Assembly: GCA_963796105.1 (NCBI GenBank)
Contig: CAWCKJ010000010.1
Coordinates: 39,620-103,619, forward strand
Reading direction: 5' to 3'
Source of the DNA: a candidate division FCPU426 bacterium
GTDB lineage: Bacteria > Oederibacteriota > Muellerivitia > Muellerivitales > Muellerivitaceae
DNA length: 64,000 nt
The notes beneath the pieces were generated by a model. That model was not told where the DNA came from. It was given only the letters and a program-made list of their open reading frames with translations, and made no database searches. Shown here piece by piece: positions 3,724-23,569 of the stretch (positions are counted from its first letter, which is position 1; every line of letters begins with the position of its first letter). The position numbers and the translations under genes are program-made.

Positions 3724-3755
3724 TATTAAGCCGGCATGAAAGACACCCAAATTAA

Positions 3756-4484: not shown

Positions 4485-4516
4485 TAATCTGATTGTTTTT
4501 ATATCGAGGATAGGAG

Positions 4517-4951: not shown

Positions 4952-5003
4952 TCGAATTGGGTATTATGATTGACCGGGATTTTGTATAAAATTAACTTAT
5001 TGG

Positions 5004-5723
5004 ATGAGAGGGATGGTAAGAAAAATGATCAGCATAAAAAACACATGGGTTTTGTTGACCGGCGCCAGCCGGGGCGTGGGAGTGAGAGTCGCCAGGGCTT
5101 TGGCGGATCAAGGCTGTAAATTGATTTTGCAAAGCAGGAATTTAGAGGGCACGAAAAAATTGGTGGAGGAACTGAAGGCCAAGGGAGTCGAGGCTTATTC
5201 GATCGCGGCGGAGTTGTCCGACCTGAGGCAAGTGGAGCGTTTAATCGCCGAGGCCCGGCGCCTGTCGGGGGACCATATCGACATTCTTTATAACAACGCG
5301 GCGATCATGGCGAAATATCACGAAGATAAATACGGGGCCACCGCTGATGAATATGTCATGAGTTTCCTGGTGAACGTGACCGTGCCAGCCCTGATCTGCA
5401 ACGCCTTTATCCCCAAAATGGTAGAGAGGGGCTGGGGCCGTATCGTGAATGTGACTTCCGGTATCGCCGATCAGCCGCAGTTGATGCCCTATAGCTGTTC
5501 CAAGGCCGCGCTGGACCGCTATGTGCGGGATCTTGTCACGACCCTCGCTGGGACGGGCGTGCTCATCAATTTAATGGACCCGGGATGGCTCAGAACCGAC
5601 TTGGGGGGGCCGCAAGCTCCGAATGATCCTGATCGGGTTTTGCCGGGGGCCCTTGTGCCGGTACTATTGGAAGAGAAGGAAGGTAGCGGAAAACTTTACC
5701 GCGCCATGGATTATGCCAAGTGA
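5004..5723 (+). CDS. short-chain dehydrogenase/reductase (SDR) family oxidoreductase
   Basis: TGASRGVG Rossmann motif, NNAA and Y-x3-K (YSCSK) catalytic motif. Confidence 0.8.
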   Translation: MRGMVRKMISIKNTWVLLTGASRGVGVRVARALADQGCKLILQSRNLEGTKKLVEELKAKGVEAYSIAAELSDLRQVERLIAEARRLSGDHIDILYNNAAIMAKYHEDKYGATADEYVMSFLVNVTVPALICNAFIPKMVERGWGRIVNVTSGIADQPQLMPYSCSKAALDRYVRDLVTTLAGTGVLINLMDPGWLRTDLGGPQAPNDPDRVLPGALVPVLLEEKEGSGKLYRAMDYAK

Positions 5724-5766
5724 GCTGTGAGTTTAGCGGACGCAATATTTTGAACAGGAGAAACAC

Positions 5767-7884
5767 ATGAGAAAAATTTTTGGATTGATGGCGGTACTCT
5801 TATTCCTTTCACCCGCGGTTTTCGCGGCGGTGGTGGAGGATTGGACCGGGGTGCAAGCGGCGAATACCGGCACCTATATGGACAGCAACGGCTCCAAGAT
5901 CGATTTTGCCGTGGACGCGGGGCCCAAGAGCGGGCAGAAGGCCCTGAAACTGACCTCCAATCTCATGCAGAGTGGCTATTGCGGCATCTGGCACAATTTC
6001 ATGGCGGACCTGTCAAAAGGGGCGAATTTGAAGTTCATGGCCAAGTCCACGCTACCGGGAGACATCCAAGTCGCTTTGAAGGACGCCTATAACGTTCAGT
6101 ACATCGCCAAGGCGCAGGTCAGCACGGATTGGGCGGAAATCTCCATCCCGCTGGCCAGTTTCCGCAAGGACCCCTATTACACCCCTCCTGACGCCATTAC
6201 GGGACATTTGATGGACCTTAGCAAAACTTCTGGGATGAATTTCGCCCCTCAAATGGCGGGGGCGGCGGTGCTTTTGTTCGGGCAGGTCGAGACGGACGGG
6301 ACGGCCGCGGCCGCCTCAAGCGCCCCAGCACCCGTGACCGTAACCAAGGATCTCGAGTTTGTCGTGATGCCGGACCAAGTGCTCGGGCCCATCAGCCCCT
6401 ATATCTACGGCCTGAACAGTCAGGATCCAACAGGCATGAACGCGACCGTCCGCAGGCTGGGCGGCAACCGCATGACTGGATACAACTGGACCAACAACTA
6501 CTCCAACGCCGGGACCGATTGGAAGAACTCCAGCGACGATTGGCTCTGCGTCTCTCCGGTTAAATACGCCGATTGCGACCAGCCTGGCGCTCTTTACCGG
6601 CATTTCGTGGAGGACAACCAGAAAGCGGGGCTGGAATCGCTCGTCACGATCCAGATGGCGGGCTACGTGTCCGCCGATAAGAAGGGCGAGGTATTGAAGG
6701 AGGAGACGGCCCCGAGTCCCCGCTGGGCCAAATTGGAGTTCGCGAAAAAAGAAGACTACACCCTGACACCCAGTCCGGACAGCAAGGTCGTCTATGACGA
6801 CGAGTTTGTCAACTACCTGGTCCAGACCTTCAAGTCGGCCTCCAAGGGTGGCATCAAATTCTACGACCTCGACAACGAGCCCGCCCTTTGGTGCGGCAAG
6901 CACCTCCGCATCCACCCGGACAAGCTCACCTATCCCGAGATCTTTGATAAGTCGGTCCAACTAGCCCATGCCATCCTCAAGGTGGATCCTACAGCCATGA
7001 TCTTCGGGCCGGTGGCATATGGTTGGCAGGAGTTCCTCAGCCTCCAGGAATCGCCGGACTACGTGGAAATGAACAAGACCTATGGTTCCTACCTCGATTA
7101 CTACCTGGCCCAGTTCCAAGCGCAGGAAAAGAAGGACGGCCAAAGATTATTGCACGTGCTCGACCTCCATTGGTACCCAGAAGCCCAGGGCGGGGGAATG
7201 CGCATCACGGAGAATGATGTCACATCCGATTCCATCGATGCCAGGGTCCAAGCGCCCCGTAGTCTTTGGGACCCCGATTACATCGAGAAAAGCTGGATCA
7301 CCCAGTGGTCCACGCACAACAAGCCCATCCGCCTCATTCCCTGGGTCCAGGAGAAGATCGACAAAAATTATCCCGGGACGAAGCTTTCTTTCTCGGAGTA
7401 TGACTACGGGGGAGGAAACCATATCTCCGGCGGGATCGCCCAGGCGGACGTGCTGGGGATTTTTGGAAAAACAGGGGTTTATATGTCGAACTACTGGGGG
7501 GACCTGAATCCCTATAACAAGGCGGCTTTCAAGCTCTACCGCAATTACGACGGCAAAAACGCGGCCTTCGGCGGAACCTCCGTCTCAGCCACGGCAGGGG
7601 ATGTGGCTTTGGCCTCCATCTACGCCGCGACAGACCCCTCCCAGCCCGGTACCCTCTGGCTGGTGGTCCTGAACAAAAGCCAAAAGGACTCCATCCATGG
7701 AAAGTTCAAGTTCCAAGGAAAAGACGCCCACAAGAAATATGTCTGTTACGGGTTCGACGGCAAGTCATCGGAGGTCCAGAAGATCAAGGAAGGGGGGATC
7801 GACAAGGACCATTTTGAGTATTCCCTCGCACCCCTATCCGCCACCTTGTTCGTATGTAAGGGAGAGAATAAAACTCAAAAGTAG
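5767..7884 (+). CDS. secreted glycoside hydrolase, clan GH-A TIM-barrel (GH44-like), with N-terminal ~190-aa beta-rich domain
   Basis: Signal peptide. RLGGNRMTGYNWTNN and LDNEPALW (NEP catalytic acid/base motif of clan GH-A). 705 aa. The family call is from memory of motifs only. Confidence 0.5.
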   Translation: MRKIFGLMAVLLFLSPAVFAAVVEDWTGVQAANTGTYMDSNGSKIDFAVDAGPKSGQKALKLTSNLMQSGYCGIWHNFMADLSKGANLKFMAKSTLPGDIQVALKDAYNVQYIAKAQVSTDWAEISIPLASFRKDPYYTPPDAITGHLMDLSKTSGMNFAPQMAGAAVLLFGQVETDGTAAAASSAPAPVTVTKDLEFVVMPDQVLGPISPYIYGLNSQDPTGMNATVRRLGGNRMTGYNWTNNYSNAGTDWKNSSDDWLCVSPVKYADCDQPGALYRHFVEDNQKAGLESLVTIQMAGYVSADKKGEVLKEETAPSPRWAKLEFAKKEDYTLTPSPDSKVVYDDEFVNYLVQTFKSASKGGIKFYDLDNEPALWCGKHLRIHPDKLTYPEIFDKSVQLAHAILKVDPTAMIFGPVAYGWQEFLSLQESPDYVEMNKTYGSYLDYYLAQFQAQEKKDGQRLLHVLDLHWYPEAQGGGMRITENDVTSDSIDARVQAPRSLWDPDYIEKSWITQWSTHNKPIRLIPWVQEKIDKNYPGTKLSFSEYDYGGGNHISGGIAQADVLGIFGKTGVYMSNYWGDLNPYNKAAFKLYRNYDGKNAAFGGTSVSATAGDVALASIYAATDPSQPGTLWLVVLNKSQKDSIHGKFKFQGKDAHKKYVCYGFDGKSSEVQKIKEGGIDKDHFEYSLAPLSATLFVCKGENKTQK

Positions 7885-8031
7885 TGAACTGGCGACCCGA
7901 AAGGGCGCACCTTAACTGACTTCCAATGTGATTTTTGCGTTTTTTGGGTGTTAATATAGGGGCCTGACTTTGAATCTATTCTTTCGATGTAATATACTTT
8001 TAATGAAAACAATTGATTAAGGGGGCGCCAA

Positions 8032-8235
8032 ATGGATTTAAAAGTCCTGCTGGAACCAAGTGAAGAAGGTGGTTATACGGCTCTTGTTCCCGCTCTTCCA
8101 GGATGTATTTCTGAGGGTAAAACTAAAAGAGAGGCACTGAAAAATATCCGGGAAGCCATTAGTTTGTATTTGGAGCCGGTGGATGATGATTTGTTGGCCA
8201 GTCCAAACGCAATAATTGAAAAAATCGCCGTTTGA
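8032..8235 (+). CDS. hicB: HicB-family antitoxin
   Basis: Small (67 aa) UPF0150/HicB-like sequence (YTALVPALPGCISEGKTKREALKNIREAI). Overlaps the downstream hicA start by 4 nt. Confidence 0.7.
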   Translation: MDLKVLLEPSEEGGYTALVPALPGCISEGKTKREALKNIREAISLYLEPVDDDLLASPNAIIEKIAV

Positions 8236-8462
8236 GCAAGGTTCCTAGTCTTCCTTATCATCGTATTGTTTCATCCCTCCAAAGATTGGGTTTTGTCGTG
8301 GTGCGTCAAAAGGGAAGCCATATCAGGCTGCAGAGATCAACCCCTGATGGGGAAGTCATCAAAATCACAGTGCCTGCCCACCAACCTGTTTTGAGATCTA
8401 CCTTGGCGCACATCCTAAAACAAGCGAAAGTTGGACTTGAGGATTTTTTAAACCACATTTAA
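8232..8462 (+). CDS. hicA: HicA-family mRNA interferase toxin
   Basis: YcfA/HicA-like fold signature (LGFVVVRQKGSHIRLQR). 76 aa. Confidence 0.75.
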   Translation: MSKVPSLPYHRIVSSLQRLGFVVVRQKGSHIRLQRSTPDGEVIKITVPAHQPVLRSTLAHILKQAKVGLEDFLNHI

Positions 8463-8520
8463 GACCGCTTGGACAGTCCGCCAAGGCTGGTCACCCGATG
8501 CTTGCGCTAAGGGGGCGGAT

Positions 8521-8635
8521 ATGGGAATCAAATTTTCCGGGGATATCAGGCCGGTGACCGATTTGAAGCGAAACACCCGCAGTCTATTAGACCAAATCCA
8601 TAGAACCTGCCGTCCGGTTGTGTTAAGGATGATAA
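8521..8635 (+). pseudogene. truncated Phd/YefM-type antitoxin N-terminal fragment
   Basis: N-terminus (VTDLKRNTRSLLDQIHRTCRPVVL) matches the Phd/YefM antitoxin N-terminal pattern. The reading frame runs into the duplication junction at 8636 and loses sense. Confidence 0.4.
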
Positions 8636-9083
8636 GATCGCCCAGGCGGACGTGCTGGGGATTTTTGGAAAAACAGGGGTTTATATGTCGAACTATTGGG
8701 GAGACCTGAACCCCTATAACAAGGCGGCTTTCAAGCTCTACCGCAATTACGACGGGAAAAACGCGACCATCGGCGGAACCTCCGTCTCAGCCACGGCCGG
8801 GGATGTGGCTTTGGCCTCCATCTACGCCGCGACAGACCCCTCCCAGCCAGACACCCTTTGGCTGGTGGTCCTGAACAAGAGCCAAAAGGACTCTATCCAC
8901 GGAAAGTTCAAGTTCCAAGGAAAAGACGCCTACAAGAAATATGTCTGTTACGGGTTCGACGGCAAATCACCGGAGGTCCAGAAGATCAAGGAAGGTGGGA
9001 TCGACAAGGACCATTTTGAGTATTCCCTCGCGCCCCTATCCGCCACCTTGTTTGTTTGTAAGGGAGAGAATAAACCTCAAAAG
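8636..9083 (+). pseudogene. duplicated 3' fragment (last ~147 codons) of the glycoside hydrolase gene
   Basis: About 97% nucleotide identity to 7434-7881. Predicted 145-aa ORF 8652-9089 is near-identical to the C-terminus of the 705-aa hydrolase. Confidence 0.75.
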
Positions 9084-9298
9084 AAATAAATCTATGCGGT
9101 GAGGTCTTAACCCAAACGGGGTGGGTTAACTTTGAAAAAGTTATTTGAAAAGTACTTTGCATTGCAAAGTAACTGTAGTTTCAATCAAAAACACAAATAA
9201 CCCGAGAATAAATATGTACTGTTATCCGTAAAAATCCGTATTATTCCCGGAATAAACCGAATCATCCAATCGCATCTTTTGTTATTATTGTTTAATCA

Positions 9299-10153
9299 AT
9301 GGAAAATAAATTCAAAACTTTTATCAACAAAAACTTTGGAATTGGTTTAGCCATTGTGATTGCCACTTCAATATTTTGGGGTCCTGTAAATTAAAATTTT
9401 TCTAAAAATTTAGAGGCAAACCAAAGTTCTCAAGATGAGTTTAGCAGGGGTTTTATATTTCGTTTCAAGAACGAACCTCTGGAAAAAATAAAACCTCTTT
9501 TCGCCCCTGATATTCGTAATCAATTCATCAACCTTTACCCCAAGATGACCGATATCTTGAATAAAATGGGTGAAATCCAATCCGTCCACTTGACCGAAAA
9601 CGAAGATGTCAAAGATAAGTCGGGCCGAGTTCTCGGAAAAGGCCTGAGATATTATGCGGATTTTAAAAAAGGCTCAATCATCATCCAAGTTGTAACAGCC
9701 CCTCATGGGGAAAGTTTTCAAGTCAATGGAATGTATTTCAATGGGGCTAAGTATAGATATGATGAAATATTTCCATTTCATTTCACGAACCGCAATTGGT
9801 TGCAATACGTTTTTCTTTTCTTTGCTTATGGTCTTTTTCTTTTTTGTGCGATCACATTCATTAAATGCCTGCAGAATGAGATGATCGGAGGATGGGAAAA
9901 AGCATTTTGGTTAGTAGCTATTTTATTTGGGTCCATCAATTTAAACATGTTTTGGCTACCGCCATCGCAAGGTTATTTTTCAGTGGGTGACAATACCGAC
10001 ACGGCATTAAATATCAAGTTTTTAATCTTATTCCCTTCGGGAATTGTAAAAGTTGGTCTTTATAACCCATGGAGGGTTTGGATTTCAATTCCTATTGGAT
10101 TAATGGCGTATAATTCGAAAAATATTTTCCGAAAAGAGCCGAGCAATAAATAG
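9299..10153 (+). pseudogene. hypothetical membrane protein gene interrupted by an in-frame TAA (31-aa N-terminal TM peptide + 202-aa ORF 9545-10153)
   Basis: ATG at 9299 opens a frame encoding a TM helix. TAA at 9392. The same frame then stays open for 50 sense codons in about 30% GC DNA before the annotated ATG at 9545. The 202-aa product has about 4 TM helices. No known family recognised. Confidence 0.4.
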
Positions 10154-10332
10154 AGACCCAGAATGAGCATTGGAAAAGGGGTCTGATCCCTTTATTGTGG
10201 CACCTAGTAATTTGCCAGCTCGTTAATCCTCATGCCCAGGCTGCAATAACAAATAGTTGTTTTCACGCAACCTTTTTGGGCTTGGCGCGTATTAACTTAT
10301 AGCAACAAAACAATAAAGGCGGATTCAACCAA

Positions 10333-11079
10333 ATGGAAAACATGAATTATTACCTATACGCGGCGGCGGTGATTTTGACCCTGCTTGAGATTTGTTTTCG
10401 CTGGGCCATTCCGGCGGTCCGGCGGAATCCATCCTTGGGGGCATGGGTGGAAACGGTGGATTCCCTTTGGGTGGCTCTTCTGCTGGCCCTGGCCCTCAAA
10501 GCCGTCCTACTCCAGCCTTTTGTGATACCTTCCGGCTCTATGGAAGACACCCTAAAGATTGGGGATTATATCCTGGTGAAAAAATACGAGTACGGCTACT
10601 CGATTTGGAACAGCACCAAAAGGTTCCTTGAATTCAAAAAGCCCCAAAGAGGCGATATCGTGGTTTTCGTCTTTCCCAAGGACCATACCAAAGATTTCGT
10701 CAAACGGTGCGTGGGGACACCGGGGGACATCCTGGCCTACAAGGACAAGGAGCTTTACGTGAACGGGGTGAAGCAAGTGGAGCCTTACGTACAGCATATC
10801 GATCCCCGGATCTTGAAAGCGGGGGACCCGCTCGAACCGGTTGGGGATGAGGAGTCGCCCACGGCGGATGGGCTCAGGAGCAGTCGGGATAATTTCGGGC
10901 CTGTCACGGTGGAAGCGGGCCATTATTTCATGATGGGGGATAACAGGGACAACAGCCTGGACTCCCGTTATTGGGGCCAATTGGATGAGAAACTCGTCAA
11001 AGGGAAAGCTTGGATGATCTACTGGCACTCGAAAAACTTCCATCCCGAATTCAGCCGCATGTTTAAAATAGTCCATTAA
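10333..11079 (+). CDS. lepB: signal peptidase I
   Basis: S26 motifs PSGSMEDTL (Ser nucleophile), VKRxxGxPGD and GDNRDNSxDSRYWG. Confidence 0.9.
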   Translation: MENMNYYLYAAAVILTLLEICFRWAIPAVRRNPSLGAWVETVDSLWVALLLALALKAVLLQPFVIPSGSMEDTLKIGDYILVKKYEYGYSIWNSTKRFLEFKKPQRGDIVVFVFPKDHTKDFVKRCVGTPGDILAYKDKELYVNGVKQVEPYVQHIDPRILKAGDPLEPVGDEESPTADGLRSSRDNFGPVTVEAGHYFMMGDNRDNSLDSRYWGQLDEKLVKGKAWMIYWHSKNFHPEFSRMFKIVH

Positions 11080-11118
11080 GATTCAACCGGGACCTTGCCC
11101 GGAGACCGGGTTTGACAG

Positions 11119-11697
11119 ATGGGTGAATCAAAAACCTCGAGCCAAGGGTCGTCCTTGGAAGACCAGGAAATTATCCGGAAAGTCAAAGCGGGGGACCGGG
11201 AGGCTTTTTCCGCGCTGGTTGAAAAATACCACCGTCCCCTTTTGAACTTCATTTACCACCTTCTCGGAAACCCATCCATGGTGGAGGATGTGGGGCAGGA
11301 GGTTTTCCTCAGCGCTTACCAATCCCTCGGCCGATTCGACCCCGAAAGGGGGACGCCCTTCTCGGCCTGGCTATTCACGATCGCCCGGAACAAGGTTTAC
11401 AGCGAGATCCGGAAGAAACGCCCTTTTTTGTCGTTGGAGGATTTTTTCCACCTGCCGGGGAGGGGAAATAATCCTGAGGAAAACCTTCTTGAGAAAGAGA
11501 GGGTGGAGGCCATCAGGGAGTGCCTGAATATCCTGCCTGAGAATCACCGGCGGGCGTTGATGAAACATTTAGAGGGATTCGCGCAGATTGAACAGGCCCG
11601 CAGGGACAAGATCCCGGCAGGCACGGTGAAAGCCCGGTTCTTTCGGACGAAACAAGTTCTCAGGCTGATACTGGAAAAACGATTCGGAGGTTTGTGA
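11119..11697 (+). CDS. ECF-type RNA polymerase sigma-70 factor
   Basis: Sigma-70 region 2 (FLSAYQSLGRFDP...FSAWLFTIARN) and region 4 HTH. 192 aa. Confidence 0.85.
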   Translation: MGESKTSSQGSSLEDQEIIRKVKAGDREAFSALVEKYHRPLLNFIYHLLGNPSMVEDVGQEVFLSAYQSLGRFDPERGTPFSAWLFTIARNKVYSEIRKKRPFLSLEDFFHLPGRGNNPEENLLEKERVEAIRECLNILPENHRRALMKHLEGFAQIEQARRDKIPAGTVKARFFRTKQVLRLILEKRFGGL

Positions 11698-11698
11698 C

Positions 11699-11872
11699 AT
11701 GGAAGAATTTAAGCCGTCGGAAGGTTTCGTAAGACTCGTCATGAGACGGATCGCCGAAACAGAGGAACAAGCTAAAAGGTGGGAATATAGTTTGCGCTAT
11801 AGGTTTATCCGCTTGGCCCTCGCTGGTTCCGCCTTGTTGGGATCTGTTCTCATGGCCAATCCTTGCCACTAA
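11699..11872 (+). CDS. putative small membrane-anchored anti-sigma factor (57 aa)
   Basis: Starts 1 nt after the sigma factor stop. Charged N-terminus followed by one TM helix (FIRLALAGSALLGSVLMA). Below the 60-aa ORF-track cutoff. Function inferred from position only. Confidence 0.3.
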   Translation: MEEFKPSEGFVRLVMRRIAETEEQAKRWEYSLRYRFIRLALAGSALLGSVLMANPCH

Positions 11873-11977
11873 TCACTGAGGCAAATAAATCGACTTACTT
11901 TCATTTCGGTAACCGAATTTTTTTCAAAAGACCCCCTTTCCCCCCATCCTCTTGGTTGTAATTCCAATCAAATATTT

Positions 11978-13633
11978 GTACTACCTGAATTTTGCACCGA
12001 GTTTACCGATTCCGTGGCCAGATCGGCCTGAATCGGGACCCGACAGTGGCCATTTTCATCAGAAGTGAACTTATGTGCAAAGAATTTTTTGCACCAAGCC
12101 ACTTCTAGGCCGCCCTGGGTCTTTCCAATCGTTTTCGATCAAGGTATTTGAGGAAACCCAATAGGCCCGCTGTCCTATCATCATGGATTGAATACCTCAC
12201 CACATCCCGATGGCCGTGATACTGGATTCGGGCGGCTACAAAGAGCATCTTCAAACGTGCGATCCGAAGGGTATGGTCCGGCATGGTGATCTGTTCCTTC
12301 TCCTGTGGCTTCTTTCCCGGTCGCTTTTCTTTTCCACAATGGCCCACCATTAGTTTCATCCACCTCCAGAGGTTGTAAGCCAGCATCACGATCTGGAAAA
12401 AAGCATGGTGGCTTTGGAAACTCTTAGAGGGAATTGCTAATAACCCCTCCCGTTGCGCCTCACCAATCAGGTTTTCCACATCCGCGCGCAGGTCGTATTC
12501 CTCAACCACCCGATGGGGTGCTCCCAGACAGTTGGTCGCGAAGATTCGGTAGACATATCCTTCCATTTCAGGAAGGCTCAATTGTTTCTCCCGCGCTTTT
12601 TCATCCAGCGTCCTCATCGCCACAAACCGGACTGGTTGTTGCCAGCCTATGGGTTGATGGACACATTCGTTGTATTCGTGTTCTCCATGGCGGTACCAAC
12701 CCTTTTTCGTGAAAGGCGGGTCATGCCGCTTGTTCCCGAAGATGAAAGAAAACCCTTCTTTTTCACAGGCTTTCACGCTTTCCCAGCCGATCATTTCACC
12801 GTCACCGCGCACCAGAATCGTCCGGACACAGGACGGCAAGAGTCGCCGGAATTGTCTAATTTGGCGGGCCACTTCCTCAGAACTAAGGGTGGTTCCGCGT
12901 CTTTGGGTTCCGCACAAATATTCCCGGGTTTCCTGGAGAAAACACAGAATGGGCCTCAGTCCCTTCTTGCCCCGGTGCTTGGGGTTGTATCCTTTTCGGC
13001 TTCCCTCGATATTTCCGTAGACCGTTGCGGTGGTGGTATCGATGTTGATCTCCACCTTCTTGGGGGCATATTTCACCTGTCCCCAAACCTTGGCCCGTAA
13101 CGCCCCACTCAGATTCAGCAACGATGCCGACTGCCCGATCCCCAGCGACCTCAGGTATCTCCAAAAAGTTGTCACTACCGGCAACAAGGGAACCCGCAGT
13201 AAACCGCACAGCATGACCTCACCCCGCAGGTAGGCAAAATGGCCAAGTCTTTGGAACCCGATGAAAAGAAGCATTAGGATGCCGCTTACCATCCGGTAGT
13301 GGCCCAAATTCGGAAGGCGTTTAGGTGCGGCATAGTGTTTTTTGAATTCCCGCTCAAAATCAAGAAGGTCGAACATCTTCGCCAATGCCAACAATCCGCC
13401 AAAAGCTGTTAGGCGGTCTTCGCAAATACCTACGGGAGTATTGGCCGTAATCTTGGGCGCGATTCTCCCGTTTCGATTGGCTTTTTTCTGGACTTGCGGG
13501 TTTGATTTCTGAGGCGTATCTTGACGTTTCACCATCTGGGGGACCCTCTTTTAGGATGAGTTGGCTTCGCAACCCTTATCCTATAATGGTTTCCTAGATG
13601 GTTTTTTTATTAGGCGCAAAATTCAGGTACTAG
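11978..13633 (-). mobile_element. IS1380-family-like insertion sequence (transposase CDS 12105-13535, minus strand)
   Basis: 476-aa DDE transposase with an IS1380-like N-terminus (RLTAFGGLLALAKMFDLLDF). Imperfect ~20-bp terminal inverted repeats: gtactacctgaattttgcacc at 11978-11998 and ggcgcaaaattcaggtactag at 13613-13633. Confidence 0.55.
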
Positions 13634-13671
13634 TTATAGAGTTTCAATTTAATCCCGTATAAGGAGCAGTC

Positions 13672-14745
13672 ATGAATCTTTTTTCCCCTTTCAAACTAGG
13701 CAAGCTGGAAATCCAGAATCGAATGGTCATGTCCGCCTTGACCCGGTGCAGGGCTGTCGAGGGAAATGTCCCAAACCCCCTGGCTGTGACTTATTACACC
13801 CAGCGGGCTTCCGCCGGGTTCATTCTCACCGAGGCCACCCAAGTGACTCCCATGGGGCAGGGTTATCCCAATACTCCCGGTATCCATTCCCCCGAACAGG
13901 TAAAGGGCTGGGCCAAGATCACCGACGCGGTGCATAAAGCGGGGGGGAGGATATTCCTCCAACTCTGGCACGTGGGCCGGGTTTCCCATTCGGATTTTCA
14001 CGACGGCAAACTGCCGGTCGCGCCATCGGCCCTTCCGGTGGTGGGACAGCTTTACACGCCCAAGGGGTTGAAGCAAATTGAGACGCCCAGGGCCCTGGAA
14101 CTTTCGGAGATACCCGAGCTAGTGGCGGCCTTCAAGAAGGGGGCGGAAAACGCAAAGGAGGCTTGCTTTGACGGGGTGGAGATCCATGGGGCTAACGGAT
14201 ACCTCCTGGAGCAATTCACCAAGGACGGCACCAACCATCGAACAGACGCCTACGGGGGAAGCCTGGAAAACCGACTGCGCCTGCCTTTGGAAGTGGTGGA
14301 TGCGGTCGTGAGCGTTTGGGGCCCCGACCGGGTGGGTTACAGGATCTCGCCTTATTTCGACCATTATTCCATGTCCGACTCGAATCCCGTGGCTACCTAC
14401 ACCCTATTGGCCCAGGAACTCAACAAGCGCAAGCTGGCTTTCCTGGATGTGGTGGAGGGGGTTTCTGGACCCAGGGTCCCACCGGCGGGATCCACTTTAT
14501 TGACGCCGATTGTGCGACAGCACTTTCACCAGGCCCTGATGGTCAATGGGGGCTATACCGCCCAGTTGGGAAACCAGATCATCGAAAAAGGCGGGGCGGA
14601 TCTGGTGTGTTACGGGACGCTCTTTCTCGCCAACCCCGACCTTCCCGAGCGGTTCAGGAAGAACGCTCCGCTAAATGAGGCCGATCCAACCACCTTTTAC
14701 GGGGGTGCTGAAAAGGGTTATACGGACTATCCCGCGTTAGTGTGA
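13672..14745 (+). CDS. NADH:flavin oxidoreductase, Old Yellow Enzyme family (NemA-like)
   Basis: OYE N-terminal signature (FSPFKLGKLEIQNRMVMSALTRCRA), HGANGYLLEQF and other TIM-barrel FMN-site motifs. Confidence 0.85.
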   Translation: MNLFSPFKLGKLEIQNRMVMSALTRCRAVEGNVPNPLAVTYYTQRASAGFILTEATQVTPMGQGYPNTPGIHSPEQVKGWAKITDAVHKAGGRIFLQLWHVGRVSHSDFHDGKLPVAPSALPVVGQLYTPKGLKQIETPRALELSEIPELVAAFKKGAENAKEACFDGVEIHGANGYLLEQFTKDGTNHRTDAYGGSLENRLRLPLEVVDAVVSVWGPDRVGYRISPYFDHYSMSDSNPVATYTLLAQELNKRKLAFLDVVEGVSGPRVPPAGSTLLTPIVRQHFHQALMVNGGYTAQLGNQIIEKGGADLVCYGTLFLANPDLPERFRKNAPLNEADPTTFYGGAEKGYTDYPALV

Positions 14746-14768
14746 AAAAACTGGCATTTTGGGAGGCT

Positions 14769-14828
14769 TCTACCGGCATGGGGATGTCGCCTACTGGCAT
14801 GACCGGCGTTTGTTACCGGCATGGGGAT
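14769..14828. repeat. left remnant of 43-bp-period tandem repeat array (CTACCGGCATG-based A/B half-units)
   Basis: The sequence ctaccggcatggggatgtcgcctactggcatgaccggcgtttgttaccggcatggggat is directly continuous, in register, with the array resuming at 16130 once the IS3 element is removed. Confidence 0.8.
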
Positions 14829-16129
14829 TGGTGTGCGCCCCAAACCTTGGACAGTTTTTACTCCAAGTTGAGAATAGGTTTTCCGGCGATTGGTTTGAGT
14901 GACTTTAAAGCCTCGAACTCCTCAGGCGGCATGTAGCCGATAGAAGAATGCAACCGTTTTTTGTTATACACCTCCTCGATGAAGTATGGAAGTCTTTGAA
15001 GCACTTCCTGATAAGTTTCGTAATTGAATAGATGCACCTCCTCATATTTCAAGGTTTTGAAAAAGGATTCCGCATTTGCATTGTCGTAAGGGTTGCCTGT
15101 CCTGGACATGCTGATCCTTAATCCTTTGGACTCAAGCAGGGCCACGTAATCCCAGCAGGCATATTGCACCCCTCTGTCTGAATGGTGGATGCATCCCGGA
15201 AGAGGATTCCTTTCCTCTAAAGCCATGCGTAAAGCCGAAAGCGACAACTCCCGATCCAGTCTCTTGGAAACCGCCCACCCGATCACCTTTCTGGAAAAAC
15301 GATCCAGAATGGCCGCCAGATAAACAAAGCAAGTGAGGATTCGGATATAGGTAATATCCGCCACCCACACTTGATTGACAGCAGTTTCTGCCACCCTTTC
15401 CAAGAGGTTGGGGAACACCGGCAGGTCGTGATTGGATTGGGTGGTTTGGATCTTGAACCTTTTCCCCCAAATAATAGGGTAAAGACCGTATTTCCTTACC
15501 ACCCGCCGAATCCGTTTGGCGTTAATCCTTAATCCCTCCCGTAAAAAGTGGTGGTAGAGCCTCCGATAGCCGTAGTAGGGGAAGGTCAATCTCACCTGCT
15601 CGATTCGGTTCTTTAAGTCCAAATCTCTTTGTTCCTGAATCTCCGGTTCACTTTTAAGTGCAGAATAATAGGTACTTCGAGGAAGCCCCATCATTTGGCA
15701 TCCTCTTGAAATTGAGCCAAATTCCTTGAGGTGATCACGGAGGTATCGAGCTTTCTCTGGTTTTCCGCGTATTTTTGGAATTTTTTTAAAAGGTCTATCG
15801 CCATGATCAATTCCCCAATCTTGGCTTTGAGTTTCTCATTCTCTTTTTCCAATATTTTTTCGTGAAGGGAAGGTTTTTCAACCAAGGTTCCTTGGCGATA
15901 TTTATCGCGCCAACGGGTTATAACGCTTGGATTGAGCTGGTATTGACGAGCAGCTTCATTGAGCGATAGGCCAGTTTCTACCTCGTGGACGACTTGTTCT
16001 TTGAAATCAATACTGAACTTCCGTCTTATTTTACCCATTTGGAAATGCTCCTTTGGGGGGTTACCCCTTGAGCCGTTTCCCTATTCTCTATTTTTTGCTT
16101 CAACTGTCCAACTTGTAGGGCGCGTTCCA
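14829..16129 (-). mobile_element. IS3-family insertion sequence (orfA 15691-16038, orfB/rve integrase 14858-15694, minus strand)
   Basis: OrfA is an HTH transposase. OrfB has the DDE integrase core. orfA stop and orfB start overlap as ATGA. ~45-bp imperfect terminal inverted repeats begin TGGTGTGCGCCCC (14829) and TGGAACGCGCCCT (reverse complement, ending 16129). 3-bp direct duplication GAT at 14826-14828 and 16130-16132. Confidence 0.85.
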
Positions 16130-16515
16130 GATACCGCCTACCGGCATGACCGGCGTTTGCTACCGGCATGGGGATGCCACCTACTGGCATGACCGAAGTT
16201 TACTACCGGCATGGGGATGTCGCCTACTGGCATGACCGGCGTTTGTTACCGGCATGGGGATACCGCCTACCGGCATGATCGGCGTTTGCTACCGGCATGG
16301 GGATGTCGCCTACTGGCATGACCGGCGTTTGTTACCGGGATGGGGATACCGCCTACCGGCATGATCGCGTTTGCTACCGGCATGGGGATGTCGCCTACCG
16401 GCATGAGCGGCGTTTGCTACCGGCATGGGGACGCTGCCTACCGGCATGACTGACTTTTCCTACCGGCATAGGGATAATCTCCTACCGGCATGTAGATTTC
16501 ACCTGCTGGCAGAGC
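16130..16515. repeat. tandem repeat array, 43-bp period = alternating 22-bp A (CCTACCGGCATGACCGGCGTTTG) and 21-bp B (CTACCGGCATGGGGATGTCG) units, ~9 periods, degenerating at the 3' end
   Basis: CCTAC(C/T)GGCATG start positions 16137, 16180, 16223, 16266, 16309, 16352, 16394, 16437 (spacing 43, one 42), then 22/22/21-bp half-units. Confidence 0.85.
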
Positions 16516-16537
16516 CGTCTCTTTGGAACAAGGGGTC

Positions 16538-16668
16538 GATTCCGACAGGGCCTCCGACAGGTTGACCGGCCATTCCGACAGGGGCTCAGCCTTTCCGACA
16601 GGGCTTCCGACAGGCTGACCGTCCATTCCGACAGGGTTTCCGACAGGCGAACTTCCCTATCCGACAGA
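16538..16668. repeat. second tandem array: 9 copies of TCCGACAGG with alternating 12-bp and 20-22-bp spacing (33-bp super-period)
   Basis: TCCGACAG at 16541, 16553, 16574, 16594, 16606, 16627, 16639, 16660. Immediately abuts the first array. Confidence 0.8.
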
Positions 16669-16847
16669 ATTCATGGGATCATGGGTGGATTTCATGGGGT
16701 CAACAGATTAGTTCTTGGGTATATGGGATTTGGAACCCCTGGGTCTTATTTTGCCTGCAATTGCCCTAAAAACTTCAGTATTTCATGGGTTCAAGGCCAG
16801 AATTAACGGGGATAAGCCATTTGCTTTTCTGGTAACATGCTGGCCTT

Positions 16848-17891
16848 ATGGAAATCCTACTACTCAGACTCGACCGGATCGGGGATTTTATCCTAGGGAT
16901 ACCGGCTTACCGCGCCCTCAGGGAGGCGCACCCCGATGACCGTATTTCGGTGGTGGTCCCCGCTAAAGTGGCCGAACTGGCCGAAGCCTGCCCCTATTTC
17001 GATGAGGTCTTCCTGTTTGAGGCCCATTGGTTGGAACCAGGAGCCCCGCTCCTGAATCGTTGGAAATCCGCCTTGAAACTCATCCGCTTCCTGCGCTCCA
17101 TGCCTCTAGATATGGTCATGGATTTCCGATACCAAAGCCGTCTGGATCCCCTGGTGGCCGGCCTCTCAGGCGCCAAAATGCGGATCGGCTATAACCAGGG
17201 ATGGGTCAGTTGGTTCTTGTCCAAAAAGGTTTCCCAGCCTCCCAAGGAATTCCACCAGGTGGACCGCAACTTGCACCTGCTGGACGCCATCGGCATCCAG
17301 GCGAAGGACCGGCACTTGGAAATATGGGCGGATGAAAGGGATAAGAAAACCGCCGAAAACCACATGCCTGCCCAGGAACTGCTTCCGGGAATCCCCACAA
17401 TCGCGATCCATGTGGGAGCGGCAACGCCTTCCAAGAAATGGATGGAGGAAAGCTTTTCCAACCTCATTTTTGAGCTTCATGCCAACACCCAGGCCGACAT
17501 ACTGGTCCTGGGCGGGGAGCATGACCAGCCCTCCGCCCATGAGATAGTGGACGGCTTGAAATGTCCCTGCGTGAATCTAACGGGAAAGTTGACCCTGCGC
17601 CAAATGGCCGCGCTGATTAAGGACTGCCAGGTCTTCATCGGCTGTGACTCAGGCTCCACCCATTTGGCTGCCGCCTGCGGGGTTCCGGTGGTCTGCTTGT
17701 TTTCGGCGGCCAATGAGGAAAATATCTGGAGGCCCTGGGGGCCCAAGGTGAAGGTCATGACCGCCCATCCTGATTGCTCACCCTGCCGGAGCCACGAGTG
17801 CACCCGCACCGACGGCTATTTCTGCATGAACGAGATCAAGGTGGATGAGGTGGTGGCTGAGGTGAAGGCCCTGCTGACGGGACAGGCTTAA
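16848..17891 (+). CDS. glycosyltransferase family 9 (ADP-heptose:LPS heptosyltransferase-like)
   Basis: GT9 N-terminal motif (ILLLRLDRIGDFILGIPAYRALREAHP) and C-terminal GxDSGxxHLAAA motif (GCDSGSTHLAAACG). Confidence 0.8.
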   Translation: MEILLLRLDRIGDFILGIPAYRALREAHPDDRISVVVPAKVAELAEACPYFDEVFLFEAHWLEPGAPLLNRWKSALKLIRFLRSMPLDMVMDFRYQSRLDPLVAGLSGAKMRIGYNQGWVSWFLSKKVSQPPKEFHQVDRNLHLLDAIGIQAKDRHLEIWADERDKKTAENHMPAQELLPGIPTIAIHVGAATPSKKWMEESFSNLIFELHANTQADILVLGGEHDQPSAHEIVDGLKCPCVNLTGKLTLRQMAALIKDCQVFIGCDSGSTHLAAACGVPVVCLFSAANEENIWRPWGPKVKVMTAHPDCSPCRSHECTRTDGYFCMNEIKVDEVVAEVKALLTGQA

Positions 17892-17904
17892 AAAATCAAA
17901 AAAA

Positions 17905-17995
17905 TTCATTTTCACCACAGTGGCGCTTCGCGCCGCACAGAGGCATAGAAAGACTTACACTAATTGGGGGAAAATCAAGAGGGCGAAAACCATGA
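17905..17995 (+). repeat. ~85-bp dispersed element copy A (TCACCACAGTGGCGCTTCGCGCCGCACAGAGGCA...AAAACCATGAATGRAARAGAATT)
   Basis: Near-identical copy at 18262-18350. Contains a GGCGC-TTC-GCGCC hairpin and ends in an RBS-like sequence plus ATG. Confidence 0.7.
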
Positions 17996-20239: not shown

Positions 20240-20362
20240 CGAATTGTAAATAAACTTCTCTCGCCCCATGCCAACCCAATTAACCGTTCCAAAGAAGGTC
20301 GGTATGCATTGGATTCCTGGGATGCAGGGGATTTAATAAATCCGAATTCTAAATTCTTAATT

Positions 20363-21637
20363 TTAAATTTTAAATTGTTGAAGGGCTTCCTTGAAGACTT
20401 TGCCCAAACGGCTGATGCCTTCCCGGATCTTGCCCTTATCCACCGCGCAATAGGTCAGGCGTAGGGTGTTCAAACCCTGGCCCTCTTTCGTGTAAAAGGC
20501 GGTGCCCACCACATAAGCTACCTTGGCCGCTAAGGCTTTCTCGAAGAGGGTGACGGCGTTAAGCCCTTCCGGCAATTCGGCCCAGAGGAAGAACCCACCC
20601 AAGGGATGGTTGTGCCGGATTTGCGGGGGGAAAAATTCCTTGATGGCGGACATCATGGCGTCCCTCCGGCCCTGGTAGGTGCTGATGAGTTTCGCCAGGT
20701 GGTCCTTCAGGTGGCCGCCTCGGAAGAAGTCCGCGGCTATGACTTGGGACAGAACGTCGGTGCAAACGTCTGCTGTTTCCTTGGCCATGGTCATGCGGGC
20801 CACGAGGGCGGGATCGGCGCAGACCCAGCCCAGCCTCATGCCGGGGGAGGCGATCTTGCTGAAACTGCCCAGGTAGATGACACGCCCGTCGGTGTCGAAG
20901 GCCTTAAGGGGCTTGATGGGTTTGCCCGTGAAATTCAACTCGCCGTAGGGGTTGTCCTCGACGATCAAAACATCATGCTTGCGGGCGACCTCCAAGAGCT
21001 GGGCTCTTTGGGCCTCGGGAAGGGTGGACCCGGCAGGGTTCTGGAAAGTGGGGATCGTGTAGATCAACTTGGGTTTGGGGGAGGCTTTCGAGAGGATCTC
21101 ATCCAGCCGCTGGATATCCATTCCCGTTTCGCCGCAGGGAACCGGCATGAACTCAACCGAGAAGTTGCGGAAGCAAAGAAGGCCCCCTAGGTAGCTGGGC
21201 TCTTCCACCGCCACGGCATCGCCGTGATTCAGCAGGGTGAGACCGGATAAGAAAAGCCCCTGCTGGCTTCCGGTCGTGATCAAAATGTTATCAACGGTGC
21301 ACTGAATGCCTTGGCCTTTCAGGTAATCGGCCACCGCTTCCCTCATGGGTTTCCAGCCGATCGTCTCGCCGTATTGAAGTGAAAATTTGCCCTGCTCCCG
21401 GATGACCTTGGAGGCGATATCGGCCAGGAGATCCTTGGGGAACAGTTCCGCGTCGGGGGTGCCGCCCGCGAAGGAAATGATGTCGGATTGTTGGACCAAT
21501 TTGAGAAGCGCGCGGATGACGGAGGGCTTCATCGAGTTGGAAACGTTGGAAAAACGGTGGTCGTAATCCATAGCTGGCTCCATGGGGAATTTCCGGGTTG
21601 GGTCAAAACCGGTCTTCCAAGATACCGGCAACGTCAT
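20363..21637 (-). CDS. PLP-dependent aminotransferase, class I/II (fold type I)
   Basis: SFSKIASPGMRLGW (PLP-lysine motif) and general AAT-like architecture. 424 aa. Confidence 0.8.
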   Translation of the reverse strand: MTLPVSWKTGFDPTRKFPMEPAMDYDHRFSNVSNSMKPSVIRALLKLVQQSDIISFAGGTPDAELFPKDLLADIASKVIREQGKFSLQYGETIGWKPMREAVADYLKGQGIQCTVDNILITTGSQQGLFLSGLTLLNHGDAVAVEEPSYLGGLLCFRNFSVEFMPVPCGETGMDIQRLDEILSKASPKPKLIYTIPTFQNPAGSTLPEAQRAQLLEVARKHDVLIVEDNPYGELNFTGKPIKPLKAFDTDGRVIYLGSFSKIASPGMRLGWVCADPALVARMTMAKETADVCTDVLSQVIAADFFRGGHLKDHLAKLISTYQGRRDAMMSAIKEFFPPQIRHNHPLGGFFLWAELPEGLNAVTLFEKALAAKVAYVVGTAFYTKEGQGLNTLRLTYCAVDKGKIREGISRLGKVFKEALQQFKI

Positions 21638-22057: not shown

Positions 22058-23464
22058 TTATAAGCTTTGAAATATTTTGTCGGCGGCGGTTTCGCCCGCG
22101 GCGATGGCGTCCGGGATGCCGATGCCCTTCAGGCCGTTTCCGGCGATATATAGCCCCTTGGTCTCATCGGCTTTGTGTGTGAGGCGTTCCACCAGATCCG
22201 CGTGGCCTGGACGGTAATAGGACATGGAGGAACTATATTGCGCCAGGTGGTGGACCATCGGCCTGTTGCGAAGTTTCAAGAGAGGCGAGAGCTCGATCAA
22301 TACATCCTCCAGAAGGGCTTCCTCCCCCTCCTTTTGAGCCACAGCGACCGCGTCATCCCCGAGGAAAGCCCGTAACAACACTGTTCCTTCGGGGGCCCGG
22401 CCTGGAAATTTTTGGCTTGCGAAAGAGCAACCCACGATCATTCTTTTTTCCTTGGAAGGGACAACGAAGCCAAATCCATTTAAGGGGTGCCCCACATCCT
22501 GACGCCGGAAACCGAGGTTCAGGGTCGCGGAGTCGTGCGCTGGTATTTTTTCCAACAGGCCATCCCAATCAGGGTCCAGGTCTTTCAAGAGAGGCCGCAT
22601 TTTGGACGGCTGAATGGCCAATACTACCTTATCCACTTCCCGTGTATGGCCTTGGGAGGTAATCTGCCAGGTGCCGTGACCGCTGGGGATAAGGGACTCC
22701 GCCGGGTGCCTCATCCAAAGGCACTCAGGGGGAATCTTGGAAGCCATTTTCTCCGCGAAGGACTGCATGCCTTCCTTGAATGAAACAAAGAGGGAATAAC
22801 GGGCCCCTGAGACGCGCGGCTGGGAATGCAGACGCTTGGCCGCCATGGCCTTCAACAAGGAACCGTACTTGATTTCCATTTCCTTGAAACGGGGAGCGCA
22901 GGTATCCAAACTCAAATCAAAGGGGTCGGCGTTATAAACCCCGCCCATGAGGGGCTGGGCCAGGTAGTCGAATACTTCCTTGCCCAGGCGCCGGGTGACG
23001 AAATCCCCGATACTTTCATCCCCAGGTTCCTTGCGAACAGGAACGAAGGTCTCGAGGCACGCCCTGAGTTTTCCCCGGATGGAAAGCAAAGGCGTGGTCA
23101 TGAGGGGAGTGAGACGGGAGGGAGCCATCAGGTAGAAGCCCTCGGGGATCGGGTGGATCTTTTCCCCCTTGAGGATGAAGGATTGCTTGATATCCGGGTT
23201 GGTCCCTACAAGCTGGTCATCCATGCCCATTCGCTTGACCATGGCCATCCCAGCCGGTTTCTCGGTAATGAAGCAATCGGGGCCTTCCTCCATGAGGAAC
23301 CCGTTTTTACGGGCTGTCCCCAGGGTGCCCCCGGGTTTACCCGCGCCATCCAGGATGTTCAAATCCAGATGGAGGTCCTTGCCTTGTGAAAGTTCCAAAA
23401 GGCGGAGCGCCGCGGCTAAACCGCTGACTCCCGCCCCGATGATTGCGACTCGTAAAGAGTTCAA
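22058..23464 (-). CDS. hemY: protoporphyrinogen/coproporphyrinogen oxidase (HemY/CgoX-type, FAD-dependent)
   Basis: N-terminal FAD dinucleotide-binding motif VAIIGAGVSGLAAALRL. About 470 aa after trimming. Start proposed at TTG 23464 with AGGAAA about 10 nt upstream. The 549-aa ORF in the track runs upstream through the IS4 end and is probably an artefactual extension. Confidence 0.7.
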   Translation of the reverse strand: MNSLRVAIIGAGVSGLAAALRLLELSQGKDLHLDLNILDGAGKPGGTLGTARKNGFLMEEGPDCFITEKPAGMAMVKRMGMDDQLVGTNPDIKQSFILKGEKIHPIPEGFYLMAPSRLTPLMTTPLLSIRGKLRACLETFVPVRKEPGDESIGDFVTRRLGKEVFDYLAQPLMGGVYNADPFDLSLDTCAPRFKEMEIKYGSLLKAMAAKRLHSQPRVSGARYSLFVSFKEGMQSFAEKMASKIPPECLWMRHPAESLIPSGHGTWQITSQGHTREVDKVVLAIQPSKMRPLLKDLDPDWDGLLEKIPAHDSATLNLGFRRQDVGHPLNGFGFVVPSKEKRMIVGCSFASQKFPGRAPEGTVLLRAFLGDDAVAVAQKEGEEALLEDVLIELSPLLKLRNRPMVHHLAQYSSSMSYYRPGHADLVERLTHKADETKGLYIAGNGLKGIGIPDAIAAGETAADKIFQSL

Positions 23465-23569
23465 TGTGTTTATGTTTCCTTTCACTCTTGTCCTAAATAA
23501 AGGCCTAAAAAAAGACGCCTCCGATTGAAGTAGAATTGGGTTTGATGACAGCCCAAAGCAACGGTTACC

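Follow-up and report, generated by a model that had tools for sequence, protein, structure and literature searches.

In the window, a 64-kb stretch of DNA from a candidate division FCPU426 bacterium that was analysed at its full length, the spacer between an OYE (old yellow enzyme) gene and a GT9 (glycosyltransferase family 9) gene holds one member of a lineage-specific non-coding tandem repeat family. The repeat tract amounts to about 30 copies of a non-coding unit of 21-22 bp, composed of a head of 11-12 bp, which is almost invariant within an array, and a tail of about 10 bp, which mutates freely. It falls into two arrays, the first of which is split by an insertion sequence (IS) of the IS3 family. 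The features of the locus are as follows.

13672-14745, plus strand: OYE-type NADH:flavin oxidoreductase (Pfam Oxidored_FMN, E = 2e-82)
14769-14828, plus strand: left fragment of array 1, with 3 heads (14770, 14791, 14813), ending in the GAT of 14826-14828
14826-14828 and 16130-16132: GAT target-site duplication flanking the IS3 element
14829-16129, minus strand: IS3-family element of 1301 bp (Pfam HTH_Tnp_1 and rve/HTH_21)
about 14829-14856 and 16102-16129: terminal inverted repeats of the IS3 element, from an inverted-repeat search
14858-15694, minus strand: orfB of the IS3 element (rve, by Pfam)
15691-16038, minus strand: orfA of the IS3 element (HTH_Tnp_1, by Pfam)
16133-16523, plus strand: right fragment of array 1, with 17 heads CCTACCGGCATG; the tract 16133-16502 is followed by a degenerate unit
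16540-16668, minus strand: array 2, eight units of CCTGTCGGAA plus tail, as 21-bp units and truncated 12-bp units
16668-16794, plus strand: three copies of (A)TTTCATGGGNTCA, starting at 16670, 16691 and 16782
16798-16847, plus strand: conserved stretch before GT9, the sole upstream part conserved with the closest relative
16848-17891, plus strand: GT9 heptosyltransferase (Pfam Glyco_transf_9, E = 4e-37)

The OYE stop codon lies 24 bp before the first head, and array 1 carries 20 heads CTACCGGCATG at a spacing that alternates between 21 and 22 bp. The tails alternate between two types, ACCGGCGTTTG and GGGATGTCG, and the 43-bp period of the array is a dimer of two 21/22-bp units whose head is asymmetric. 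In the intact window, Tandem Repeats Finder (TRF) called this period at 16130-16492 (8.4 copies, 84% matches, score 507); when 14829-16132 was deleted, it called a single array that crossed the junction uninterrupted (9.7 copies, 85% matches, 0% indels, score 598). Self-identity of the IS-deleted array was 0.76 at a lag of 43 bp, 0.69 at 86 bp and 0.35-0.37 at 21 and 22 bp, and a higher-order repeat of 86 bp was seen in the equality of units 2-3, 8-9 and 12-13. At the 3' end the units decay progressively from about unit 17 onward, and a degenerate unit, CCTGCTGGCAGAG at 16502-16523, closes the array beyond the 20 heads. The motif CTACYGGCATG, with up to one mismatch, had 19 matches within 14770-16492 and a single one in the rest of the 64 kb, against an expectation of 0.95, and 0 of 100 shuffles reached the count of array 1. 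The repeats are non-coding: neither 43 nor 22 is divisible by 3, and the arrays are not traversed by any long open reading frame (ORF). TRF found no further array of this kind in the window beyond its calls of 43 bp and 33 bp.

The arrays could be an artefact of the long-read metagenome assembly, as 16133-16368 and the IS junctions lie outside the cover of short-read contigs. Logan contigs from short reads of run ERR11523656, however, matched the window with 0 mismatches at 13600-14799 (1200 bp) and 16369-17940 (1572 bp), reproducing both edges exactly, including, for array 1, the first 31 bp (14769-14799) and the last six units (from 16369), and the whole of array 2. They break inside array 1, where the central copy number (16133-16368) is that of the source assembly alone. 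Equivalent arrays also occur in independent assemblies from JGI, ENA and NCBI. An artefact is thus extremely improbable.

An earlier note on this DNA had described the second array as a different one, with 9 copies of TCCGACAGG in a strict alternation of 12-bp and 20-22-bp spacings. We counted 8 copies, 7 exact and one TCCGACAGA, starting at 16541, 16553, 16574, 16594, 16606, 16627, 16639 and 16660; the spacings (12, 21, 20, 12, 21, 12 and 21 bp) contain 21 and 20 in succession. The 33-bp super-period was found by TRF, over only 2.3 copies (16593-16667, score 104). Read on the minus strand, the units are of the CCTGTCGGAATGGCCGGTCAA type, with the head CCTGTCGGAAT. The minus-strand unit aligned to the unit CCTGTGGGCATGAGCCGGACGC of the closest relative (locus L127, described below) with a score of 15, 16 matches and one gap. 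This score was reached by 3 of 20000 shuffles, and the plus strand of array 2 stayed at background level. Because the minus-strand unit aligns above shuffles, array 2 is, as judged from this alignment, an inverted member of the unit superfamily of array 1 rather than a different array. A coding role of the 33-bp array, part of which is overlapped by a 62-aa minus-strand ORF (16438-16626), was also considered. The frame is broken by indels, however, the encoded peptide shows no repetition, and the idea was dropped.

Apart from such small counting errors, the description in the earlier note was accurate. The formal TRF analysis reproduced the 43-bp period of its first array, the 9.7 copies of the IS-deleted sequence agree with its roughly ten periods, and parsing of the units showed both the alternation of A and B half-units and the decay at the 3' end. 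The half-units had been given as 22 and 21 bp, while the sequences typed for them have 23 and 20 letters. The near-palindromes seen in the core motifs exist as CCGG-N5-CCGG, which is confined to the A half-unit.

Between array 2 and GT9, the motif (A)TTTCATGGGNTCA was only weakly above chance, with 5 matches in the window against 1.8 expected. The three copies listed above are probably degenerate remnants containing CATGGG, or operator-like sites near the putative GT9 promoter. The conserved stretch 16798-16847 presumably holds the ribosome-binding site and the core promoter region of GT9.

The difference between head and tail was quantified in seven aligned arrays: the A units and the B units of the window, array 2, three blocks of L127, and the array of a more distant genome (L133). 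Every contiguous unit entered the count, and the contrast is therefore no product of a selection of well-kept copies. Unit positions 1-11 had 24 mismatches to the array consensus among 638, and the remaining positions had 164 among 641 (Fisher p about 1e-30); extra alleles numbered 17 in the head and 100 in the tail, over 77 columns each. Variation in the heads of the seven arrays is about 6-7-fold lower than in the tails, and the contrast keeps the same phase even where the heads of the arrays differ. It agrees with the comparison across genomes described below, in which heads are identical and tails unrelated. Under neutral decay, an amplified unit would be expected to gather differences at all positions alike, and we therefore infer that the head is constrained, either by a function at the level of the host or by re-amplification of only those units whose head is intact.

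The GT9 protein of the window is the single member of its protein cluster. Among its homologues, one is 85% identical (L127) and many are 58-73% identical. In L127, about 630 bp of the spacer upstream of GT9 keep one continuous phase of 21-22 bp over about 29 units, in which blocks of different heads follow each other: CCTGTGGGCATG (11 copies), CCTAGGAACAT (8), CC(G/T)TCGGAA (3) and CCTGCCCGCA (7). Despite these head changes, CCT...CAT and a GCCGG-type tail persist across the blocks. The repeat blocks of L127 are interspersed with a roughly 27-nt element, GGATAAACCGCCCACATTCCTGCCCGC (7546-7573, 7621-7647 and 7869-7895), which the window lacks. When the window and L127 were compared by blastn, a 51-bp alignment of 88% identity (16798-16850, ending in the GT9 ATG) was obtained, and nothing else upstream could be aligned; the array was completely turned over between two species with 85% identical GT9. 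Nine further GT9 loci, of 65-72% identity, showed no array in the 17-21 kb around GT9 and had a different upstream gene. Since these more distant loci lack the array and that of L127 cannot be aligned, the array at the GT9 site is present only in two sister species and has been rewritten between them. The earlier note had offered a phase-variable promoter spacer for GT9 as a candidate role, which nothing here supports: relatives of 65-72% identity lack the array, and the same repeat lies beside unrelated genes elsewhere.

The two sister loci also differ upstream of the tract. About 11.5 kb between the M48 peptidase gene and the repeat tract of the window (3284-14768) have no counterpart in L127, where a TPR gene is found. 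This insertion region carries two IS elements, and it encodes SfLAP, SDR, a GH44 glycosidase, a signal peptidase, an ECF sigma factor, an IS4-like element and OYE. By this comparison, the repeat tract lies exactly at a synteny breakpoint.

The IS3-family element, with the termini TGGTGTGCGCC... and ...GGCGCGTTCCA, bears GAT on both sides, as the earlier note had reported. Removal of 14829-16132 rebuilds a unit in which GTTACCGGCATGGGGAT is joined to ACCG, identical to units 9 and 13, and yields the single indel-free TRF array described above. The array is thus restored in perfect register, and therefore the repeat is older than the IS3 insertion, in line with the order of events first proposed. 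Identical transposases with the same termini were found at other sites, and one such copy (L155) has a 3-bp GCT duplication. A preference of the IS3 element for such arrays was considered, as one copy (L152) adjoins a repeat element of the L127 type, but the copies in L154 and L155 lie at ordinary sites, and we claim none.

Other repeats were noticed around these IS3 copies. In L152, GGATAAACCGCCCACATTCCTGCCCGC recurs at 226-252 (minus strand), directly beside the IS3 copy, and at 1-200 the 11-mer GTGGCACAATC forms clusters in both orientations, at a spacing of about 19 bp, around an AT-rich stretch; these clusters are another short-motif array, probably of the same lineage as the window. The flanks of the copies in L154 (about 1590-1640) and L155 (about 1620-1670) have CCTTGGTGTNGNAACANGGATTTTCTTGNGGC in common, which may be another dispersed repeat of the lineage.

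By pattern scans, the head CCTACCGGCATGG was found again in arrays at non-orthologous loci of two other metagenomic lineages. An extended head of 15 nt, CGCCTACCGGCATGG, is common to the window, L013 and L133/L156, and the tails there are unrelated to those of the window. L013, labelled as an FCPU426 metagenome-assembled genome, has four CCTACCGGCATGG units in a stack with further short-motif arrays, and this stack precedes a PIN gene and rmlDBAC. An array of 12 CCTACCGGCATGGGTCRTTCCG units is present in L133, L156 and L157, which are from assemblies of three different peat or soil metagenomes; the array starts 5 bp past the stop codon of an unknown gene and lies upstream of a Ser/Thr kinase gene. 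In unit 8, L157 departs from L156/L133. The heads are in sense orientation to the flanking genes in the window and in L013, and antisense to both neighbours in L156. Relatives of the L156 kinase are labelled Elusimicrobiota, and the sole protein family found to be shared by these genomes and the window organism is 48% identical, so they are not close relatives. The repeats form an undescribed family in uncultured soil and peat bacteria. A link to genes for envelope polysaccharides (GT9 in the window, rml in L013) was considered and given up, as L156 lacks it.

These loci emerged from scans of different scope. In 185,579 species genomes, a scan for two heads 10-13 bp apart gave mostly single chance matches among those listed, and among these L013 alone resembles the window array; the scan was not exhaustive, the genome of the window itself was not among the matches listed, and other arrays are possible beyond them. 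A metagenome scan for three heads gave 6 loci, only L133 of which was of the window type. Two multi-copy hits of the genome scan, L111 (Actinomycetota) and L114 (Stieleria), were set aside as simple tandem repeats with no relation to the window array, in which the head occurs by coincidence. Viral scans gave short clusters of 2-4 copies of TACCGGCATG in phage contigs, and TCCGACAGG pairs also occur in phages. In related phage contigs (L118 at 7570-7615, also L122, L123 and L124), four copies of (AC)TACCGGCAT(G) at spacings of 12, 9 and 12 bp stand immediately after a promoter-like site, TTTACA-N17-TATAAT, in an operator-like layout; the neighbouring genes have no known function and PHROGs was uninformative. 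Another phage cluster, in L119, lies within a head-gene module. We treated the phage TACCGGCATG clusters as products of the search design.

The surroundings of the related arrays contained further repeats. In L013, four arrays are stacked in one 800-bp spacer (7064-7830): GGCGGTAAAGGCGGTAAACC (28 bp, 7 copies), irregular clusters of GCGGTAAG, CCTACCGGCATGGG (4 copies), and motifs of CGATAACCCG/GGGAACCCG/GAGAACT, separated by a repeated segment GGGTTCGA...CTCACCGCARGCTKGCCGGGAA. In L156, four related palindromes of the form GTGTNCC-N5-GGNACAG, for example GTGTTCCGAGTCGGAACAG, lie between the array and the kinase gene (1370-1610, minus reading), and their GGACAG half resembles TCCGACAGG of the window.

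We read the tract, tentatively and with somewhat less than even confidence, as an iteron-like array whose binding sites share one face of the DNA and which evolves in the manner of a minisatellite. The minisatellite behaviour is visible in the sequence: the units are amplified and homogenised in blocks of 43 bp and 86 bp by unequal recombination or slippage, the edges decay, and sister species differ throughout the tract, in which the IS3-family element landed later. The heads would be putative binding sites, arranged head-to-tail, for a sequence-specific DNA-binding protein encoded elsewhere. With a site every two helical turns, the bound proteins would all sit on the same side of the helix, in the way known from plasmid iterons or partition-site repeats. 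The array would act at the level of DNA rather than RNA, independent of its orientation, because its orientation to the neighbours is not fixed and no RNA structure or family was detected. Titration of the protein, insulation, and local regulation of the neighbouring genes are all possible purposes of the bound array. In a further, less probable reading, these would be chromosomal iteron arrays on which a lineage-specific protein family forms a long nucleoprotein filament that serves as an insulator or a centromere-like structure. Periodicity and copy number far beyond chance support the binding-site array, and iterated binding sites, one of the candidates in the earlier note, are favoured by the 6-7-fold conservation of the head and by the recurrence of the same head at non-orthologous loci. 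The single phase that L127 keeps through all its changes of head also speaks for this reading.

Several points weigh against it. No candidate binding protein was linked to any of the four loci, and about 200 kb of related DNA contained no single heads and so gave no sign of a regulon. To bind all four head types of L127, a protein would have to be tolerant, or more than one specificity would be required. The units counted in the head/tail statistic share ancestry, and indels in the tails inflate the mismatch figure of the tails somewhat. Furthermore, the absence of the array in GT9 relatives of 65-72% identity, its complete rewriting between species with 85% identical GT9 and the tolerated IS insertion fit dispensable DNA.

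These last three facts equally favour the main rival, a functionless or selfish minisatellite, which would be dispensable DNA growing and shrinking by slippage or unequal recombination, perhaps under weak mismatch repair in this lineage, and whose heads would be kept only because intact units get re-amplified. The short alignable stretch, only 51 bp before the GT9 start, the 86-bp higher-order repeats with decayed edges, and the position at a synteny breakpoint beside an 11.5-kb insertion with IS elements point the same way, as do the unit-level difference between the samples of L156 and L157 and the irregular GCGGTAAG clusters of L013, whose spacings of 8-20 bp resemble plain slippage products. 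Neutral drift, however, predicts evenly spread differences, and the minisatellite explains less well the 6-7-fold contrast between head and tail, in the same phase in seven arrays, and the same 15-nt head in non-orthologous arrays of distant genomes whose tails are unrelated. We regard it as possible, and as somewhat less likely than the binding-site array.

In form, the tract is of the minisatellite or variable-number tandem repeat (VNTR) type, with head-to-tail non-coding repeats within 10-100 bp. Known examples are the short and long tandemly repeated repetitive sequences (STRR/LTRR) of cyanobacteria and the mycobacterial interspersed repetitive units (MIRU-VNTR), with units of 7 bp in STRR and 46-101 bp in MIRU. 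The tract resembles them in being intergenic and non-coding, in occurring at several loci of one lineage, and in varying between species and having a function that is unknown or doubtful. We know of none among them with a partition into head and tail, a continuous two-turn phase across differing heads, or this sequence.

Comparison with other known classes drew on the annotation of the window, in which Pfam covered most ORFs of at least 150 aa, including all genes flanking the arrays, and tblastn was used for IstA and IstB; across the 64 kb this turned up no rep, par, cas or istAB genes. When the arrays were compared by BLAST with 72,556 plasmids and 50,697 phage records, nothing similar appeared, and Rfam 15 covariance models gave only chance-level matches outside the arrays, in keeping with the earlier note, whose author had not recognised the repeat family. 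Its exclusion of CRISPR also holds. A conserved segment that alternates with a more variable one in a single orientation recalls CRISPR and tandem interspaced guide RNA (TIGR) arrays, but the variable segment here is a tail of about 10 bp with point-mutated versions of two consensus sequences, in contrast to the unrelated acquired spacers of those systems. TIGR arrays consist of units with two variable spacers and adjoin a tas gene with a Nop domain; the tails here are not variable spacers and no such gene lies nearby. Repetitive extragenic palindromes (REPs) and the mosaic elements that they build (BIMEs) are likewise short intergenic repeats able to cluster. REPs are imperfect palindromes of alternating orientation in hundreds of dispersed copies, whereas the units here are direct within arrays, give no hairpin signal and have no solitary copies.

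An RNA-level element was also weighed, in which the tract would be transcribed as a long GT9 leader or as an independent RNA, for example as a sponge for an RNA-binding protein. No plus-strand terminator is predicted within the arrays between OYE and GT9, and the heads are sense to the downstream genes in the window and in L013; moreover, GGGGAUGU in the B tails recalls what we take to be CsrA sites. Folding, however, was not better than that of shuffles on either strand (z = +1.22 and -1.14), there was no Rfam match, and the orientation is not kept, with array 2 inverted and the L156 heads antisense to both neighbours. Sponges of the CsrB/RsmZ type carry many GGA motifs in hairpin loops; here GGGGAUG is confined to the B tails of the window, with none in the units of L013 and L156, and comes without a hairpin signal. 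A structured RNA repeat, as once suggested for this locus, is therefore not favoured, and we consider an RNA-level element in general quite unlikely.

A close formal likeness is to the iterons of theta-replicating plasmids, among which the R6K gamma origin has seven contiguous 22-bp repeats and pPS10 has four 22-bp repeats. The array shares with them the head-to-tail order, the phasing of about 22 bp (two turns), and a conserved asymmetric core with looser flanks, with 20 heads at 21/22-bp spacing in the window and 29 units of 21-22 bp in L127. The 43-bp period over about 10 copies also recalls sopC of the F plasmid, an array of 12 tandem 43-bp repeats located after sopAB, each with an inverted-repeat SopB site; the function of the sopC array needs no transcription. 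The tract might belong to an integrated plasmid or some other replicon, as the iterons of its origin or as its centromere, a partition site like sopC/parC. However, iterons number 3-9 and lie beside a rep gene, an AT-rich region and DnaA boxes, whereas the 20-29 units here are chromosomal and their head changes block by block. No initiator gene was found beside the arrays, where the neighbours are OYE, IS3 and GT9, and no Rep family was found in the 64 kb. DnaA boxes TTATCCACA, with up to one mismatch, were at chance (13 matches against 12.8 expected), with none between 12481 and 20435 and so none within 2 kb of the arrays, and no AT-rich unwinding region was found, the lowest 100-bp GC content near the arrays being 42%. 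A partition site was set aside because the tandem repeats come with no par operon in the window; in contrast to sopC, the 43-bp unit here is a dimer of 21/22-bp units with an asymmetric head. Together with the lack of similarity to plasmids and the flanking genes, which are syntenic chromosomal genes in many relatives, these results make an integrated replicon very unlikely.

The sequence of the unit itself resembled the ends of an IS21-family element of Burkholderiales (L053, L092, L095, L115, L015 and L069), which came up in the scan of species genomes and in which Pfam confirmed IstA and IstB. The tips of this element carry 4-5 tandem 23-bp repeats, GTACCGGCATGGGCCGGAATCAC, with TACCGGCATGRRCCGGAAT repeated 4-5 times at 23 bp. 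Its terminal repeats read GTACCGGCATGRRCCGGAATCRC, ending in ...CCGGATTACGCA, and 4-5 copies are unusually many. The match of the head was imposed by the search pattern, and that of the tail was not: the IS21 tail GGCCGGAA matches the L127 unit ACTGCCCGCATGGGCCGGAAGT and the CATGA-CCGG of the window. Like the units of the arrays, the IS21 units are 22-23 bp long, of nearly the same sequence (TACCGGCATG-RR-CCGGAA), and tandem head-to-tail. Terminal direct repeats of IS21 (L1/L2 and R1/R2) are transposase-binding sites, and IstA needs two of them (PMC10122671), which shows by analogy that near-identical tandem units can be protein-binding sites.

The tract could be imagined as a mimic or relic of a transposon end of the MuA/TnsB/IstA type. 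It would then be a solo end that has been amplified, or a decoy for transposase, acting by titration or target immunity. The units of 21-23 bp in head-to-tail order, the head and GCCGGAA tail common to the Burkholderiales repeats and to the window and L127 units, and the need of IstA for two or more direct repeats speak for such an origin, which would also explain an unlinked binding protein, several heads, fast turnover and independence of orientation. On the other hand, the resemblance came from a search designed around the head, and only one IS21 subfamily, in another phylum, carries it (4 of the 124 loci hit by the pattern). The IstA and IstB of L115 had no tblastn match in the window, L127-L132, L013 or L133. 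IS21 ends have 2-5 copies in inverted sets at two tips, a terminal CA and istA-istB between them, which were not found here; the 20 + 8 units of the window form sets that point towards each other without TG/CA tips, and 20-29 copies are far above any known transposon end. The window array was therefore rejected as an IS21 end, and we think a mimic or relic unlikely. A specific form of it, in which the head blocks mimic different elements of the MuA/TnsB/IstA type and soak up transposase or confer target immunity, would account for the fast turnover as expected of an arms race, and is in our view still less probable.

Some motif ideas were also dropped. In the A unit, TGGCAT...TTTGC would be 4 nt too far apart for a sigma-54 promoter, and a search for an ECF or sigma-70 promoter in each unit gave only one weak sigma-70-like site (16450-16478). 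CCGGTAG is on the wrong strand for an RfaH ops element, the G-runs are 43 bp apart and so do not suit a G-quadruplex, and MraZ, PhoB and Noc-type sites were checked by eye and discarded. Avoidance of restriction sites was rejected as a cause because neither CATG nor CCGG is depleted in the window.

The window as a whole is ordinary chromosome, encoding EF-P, AccBC, ThiC, DnaJ, enzymes of the shikimate pathway, type IV pilus genes and haem genes. Within the 11.5-kb insertion region, the IS4-like element (11978-13633) has a DDE_Tnp_1_4 transposase (12105-13535, minus strand) and 20-bp terminal inverted repeats (11979-11998 and 13613-13632). An identical transposase is carried by at least 9 further contigs, of which some exceed 1 Mb, and about 21 kb more DNA with the same transposase (L159) held no further array. 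At 8032-8462 and 8652-9089, a HicB/HicA-like toxin-antitoxin pair, identified by eye in the translations, stands before a 145-aa ORF that is nearly a duplicate of the C-terminus of the GH44 protein (5767-7884); the surrounding stretch is low in GC (43%). Elsewhere, an IS4-type transposase (DUF4372 + DDE_Tnp_1, 23607-24776) separates the amine oxidase gene from that of ferrochelatase, two genes that are neighbours in relatives, and the transposase frame overlaps the 5' end of the amine oxidase ORF (22058-23707). A 7-bp microsatellite, AATTCTA, with 4.6 copies at 20345-20376, overlaps the 3' end of an aminotransferase gene (20363-21637, minus strand) and extends into the spacer just past its stop codon.

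The general kind of element is known, as bacterial intergenic minisatellites and iteron-like arrays, and this family is uncatalogued. What is unusual is the partition into head and tail, the continuous phase across blocks of differing heads, and the reuse of one head by different uncultured lineages at unrelated loci. Bacterial chromosomes normally delete useless DNA, and to our knowledge long phased non-coding repeat tracts are rare in them. Either way, the tract is a warning for assembly, as short-read assemblies break at both array edges. Should the heads be binding sites, an unknown DNA-binding system would exist in poorly known soil and peat bacteria, which could be a chromosomal iteron, an insulator or a decoy array, and the tract would be a ready-made bait of high affinity for its protein. 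If they are not, the tract would be a clean prokaryotic case of satellite-DNA dynamics, with higher-order repeats, edge decay and library-like turnover.

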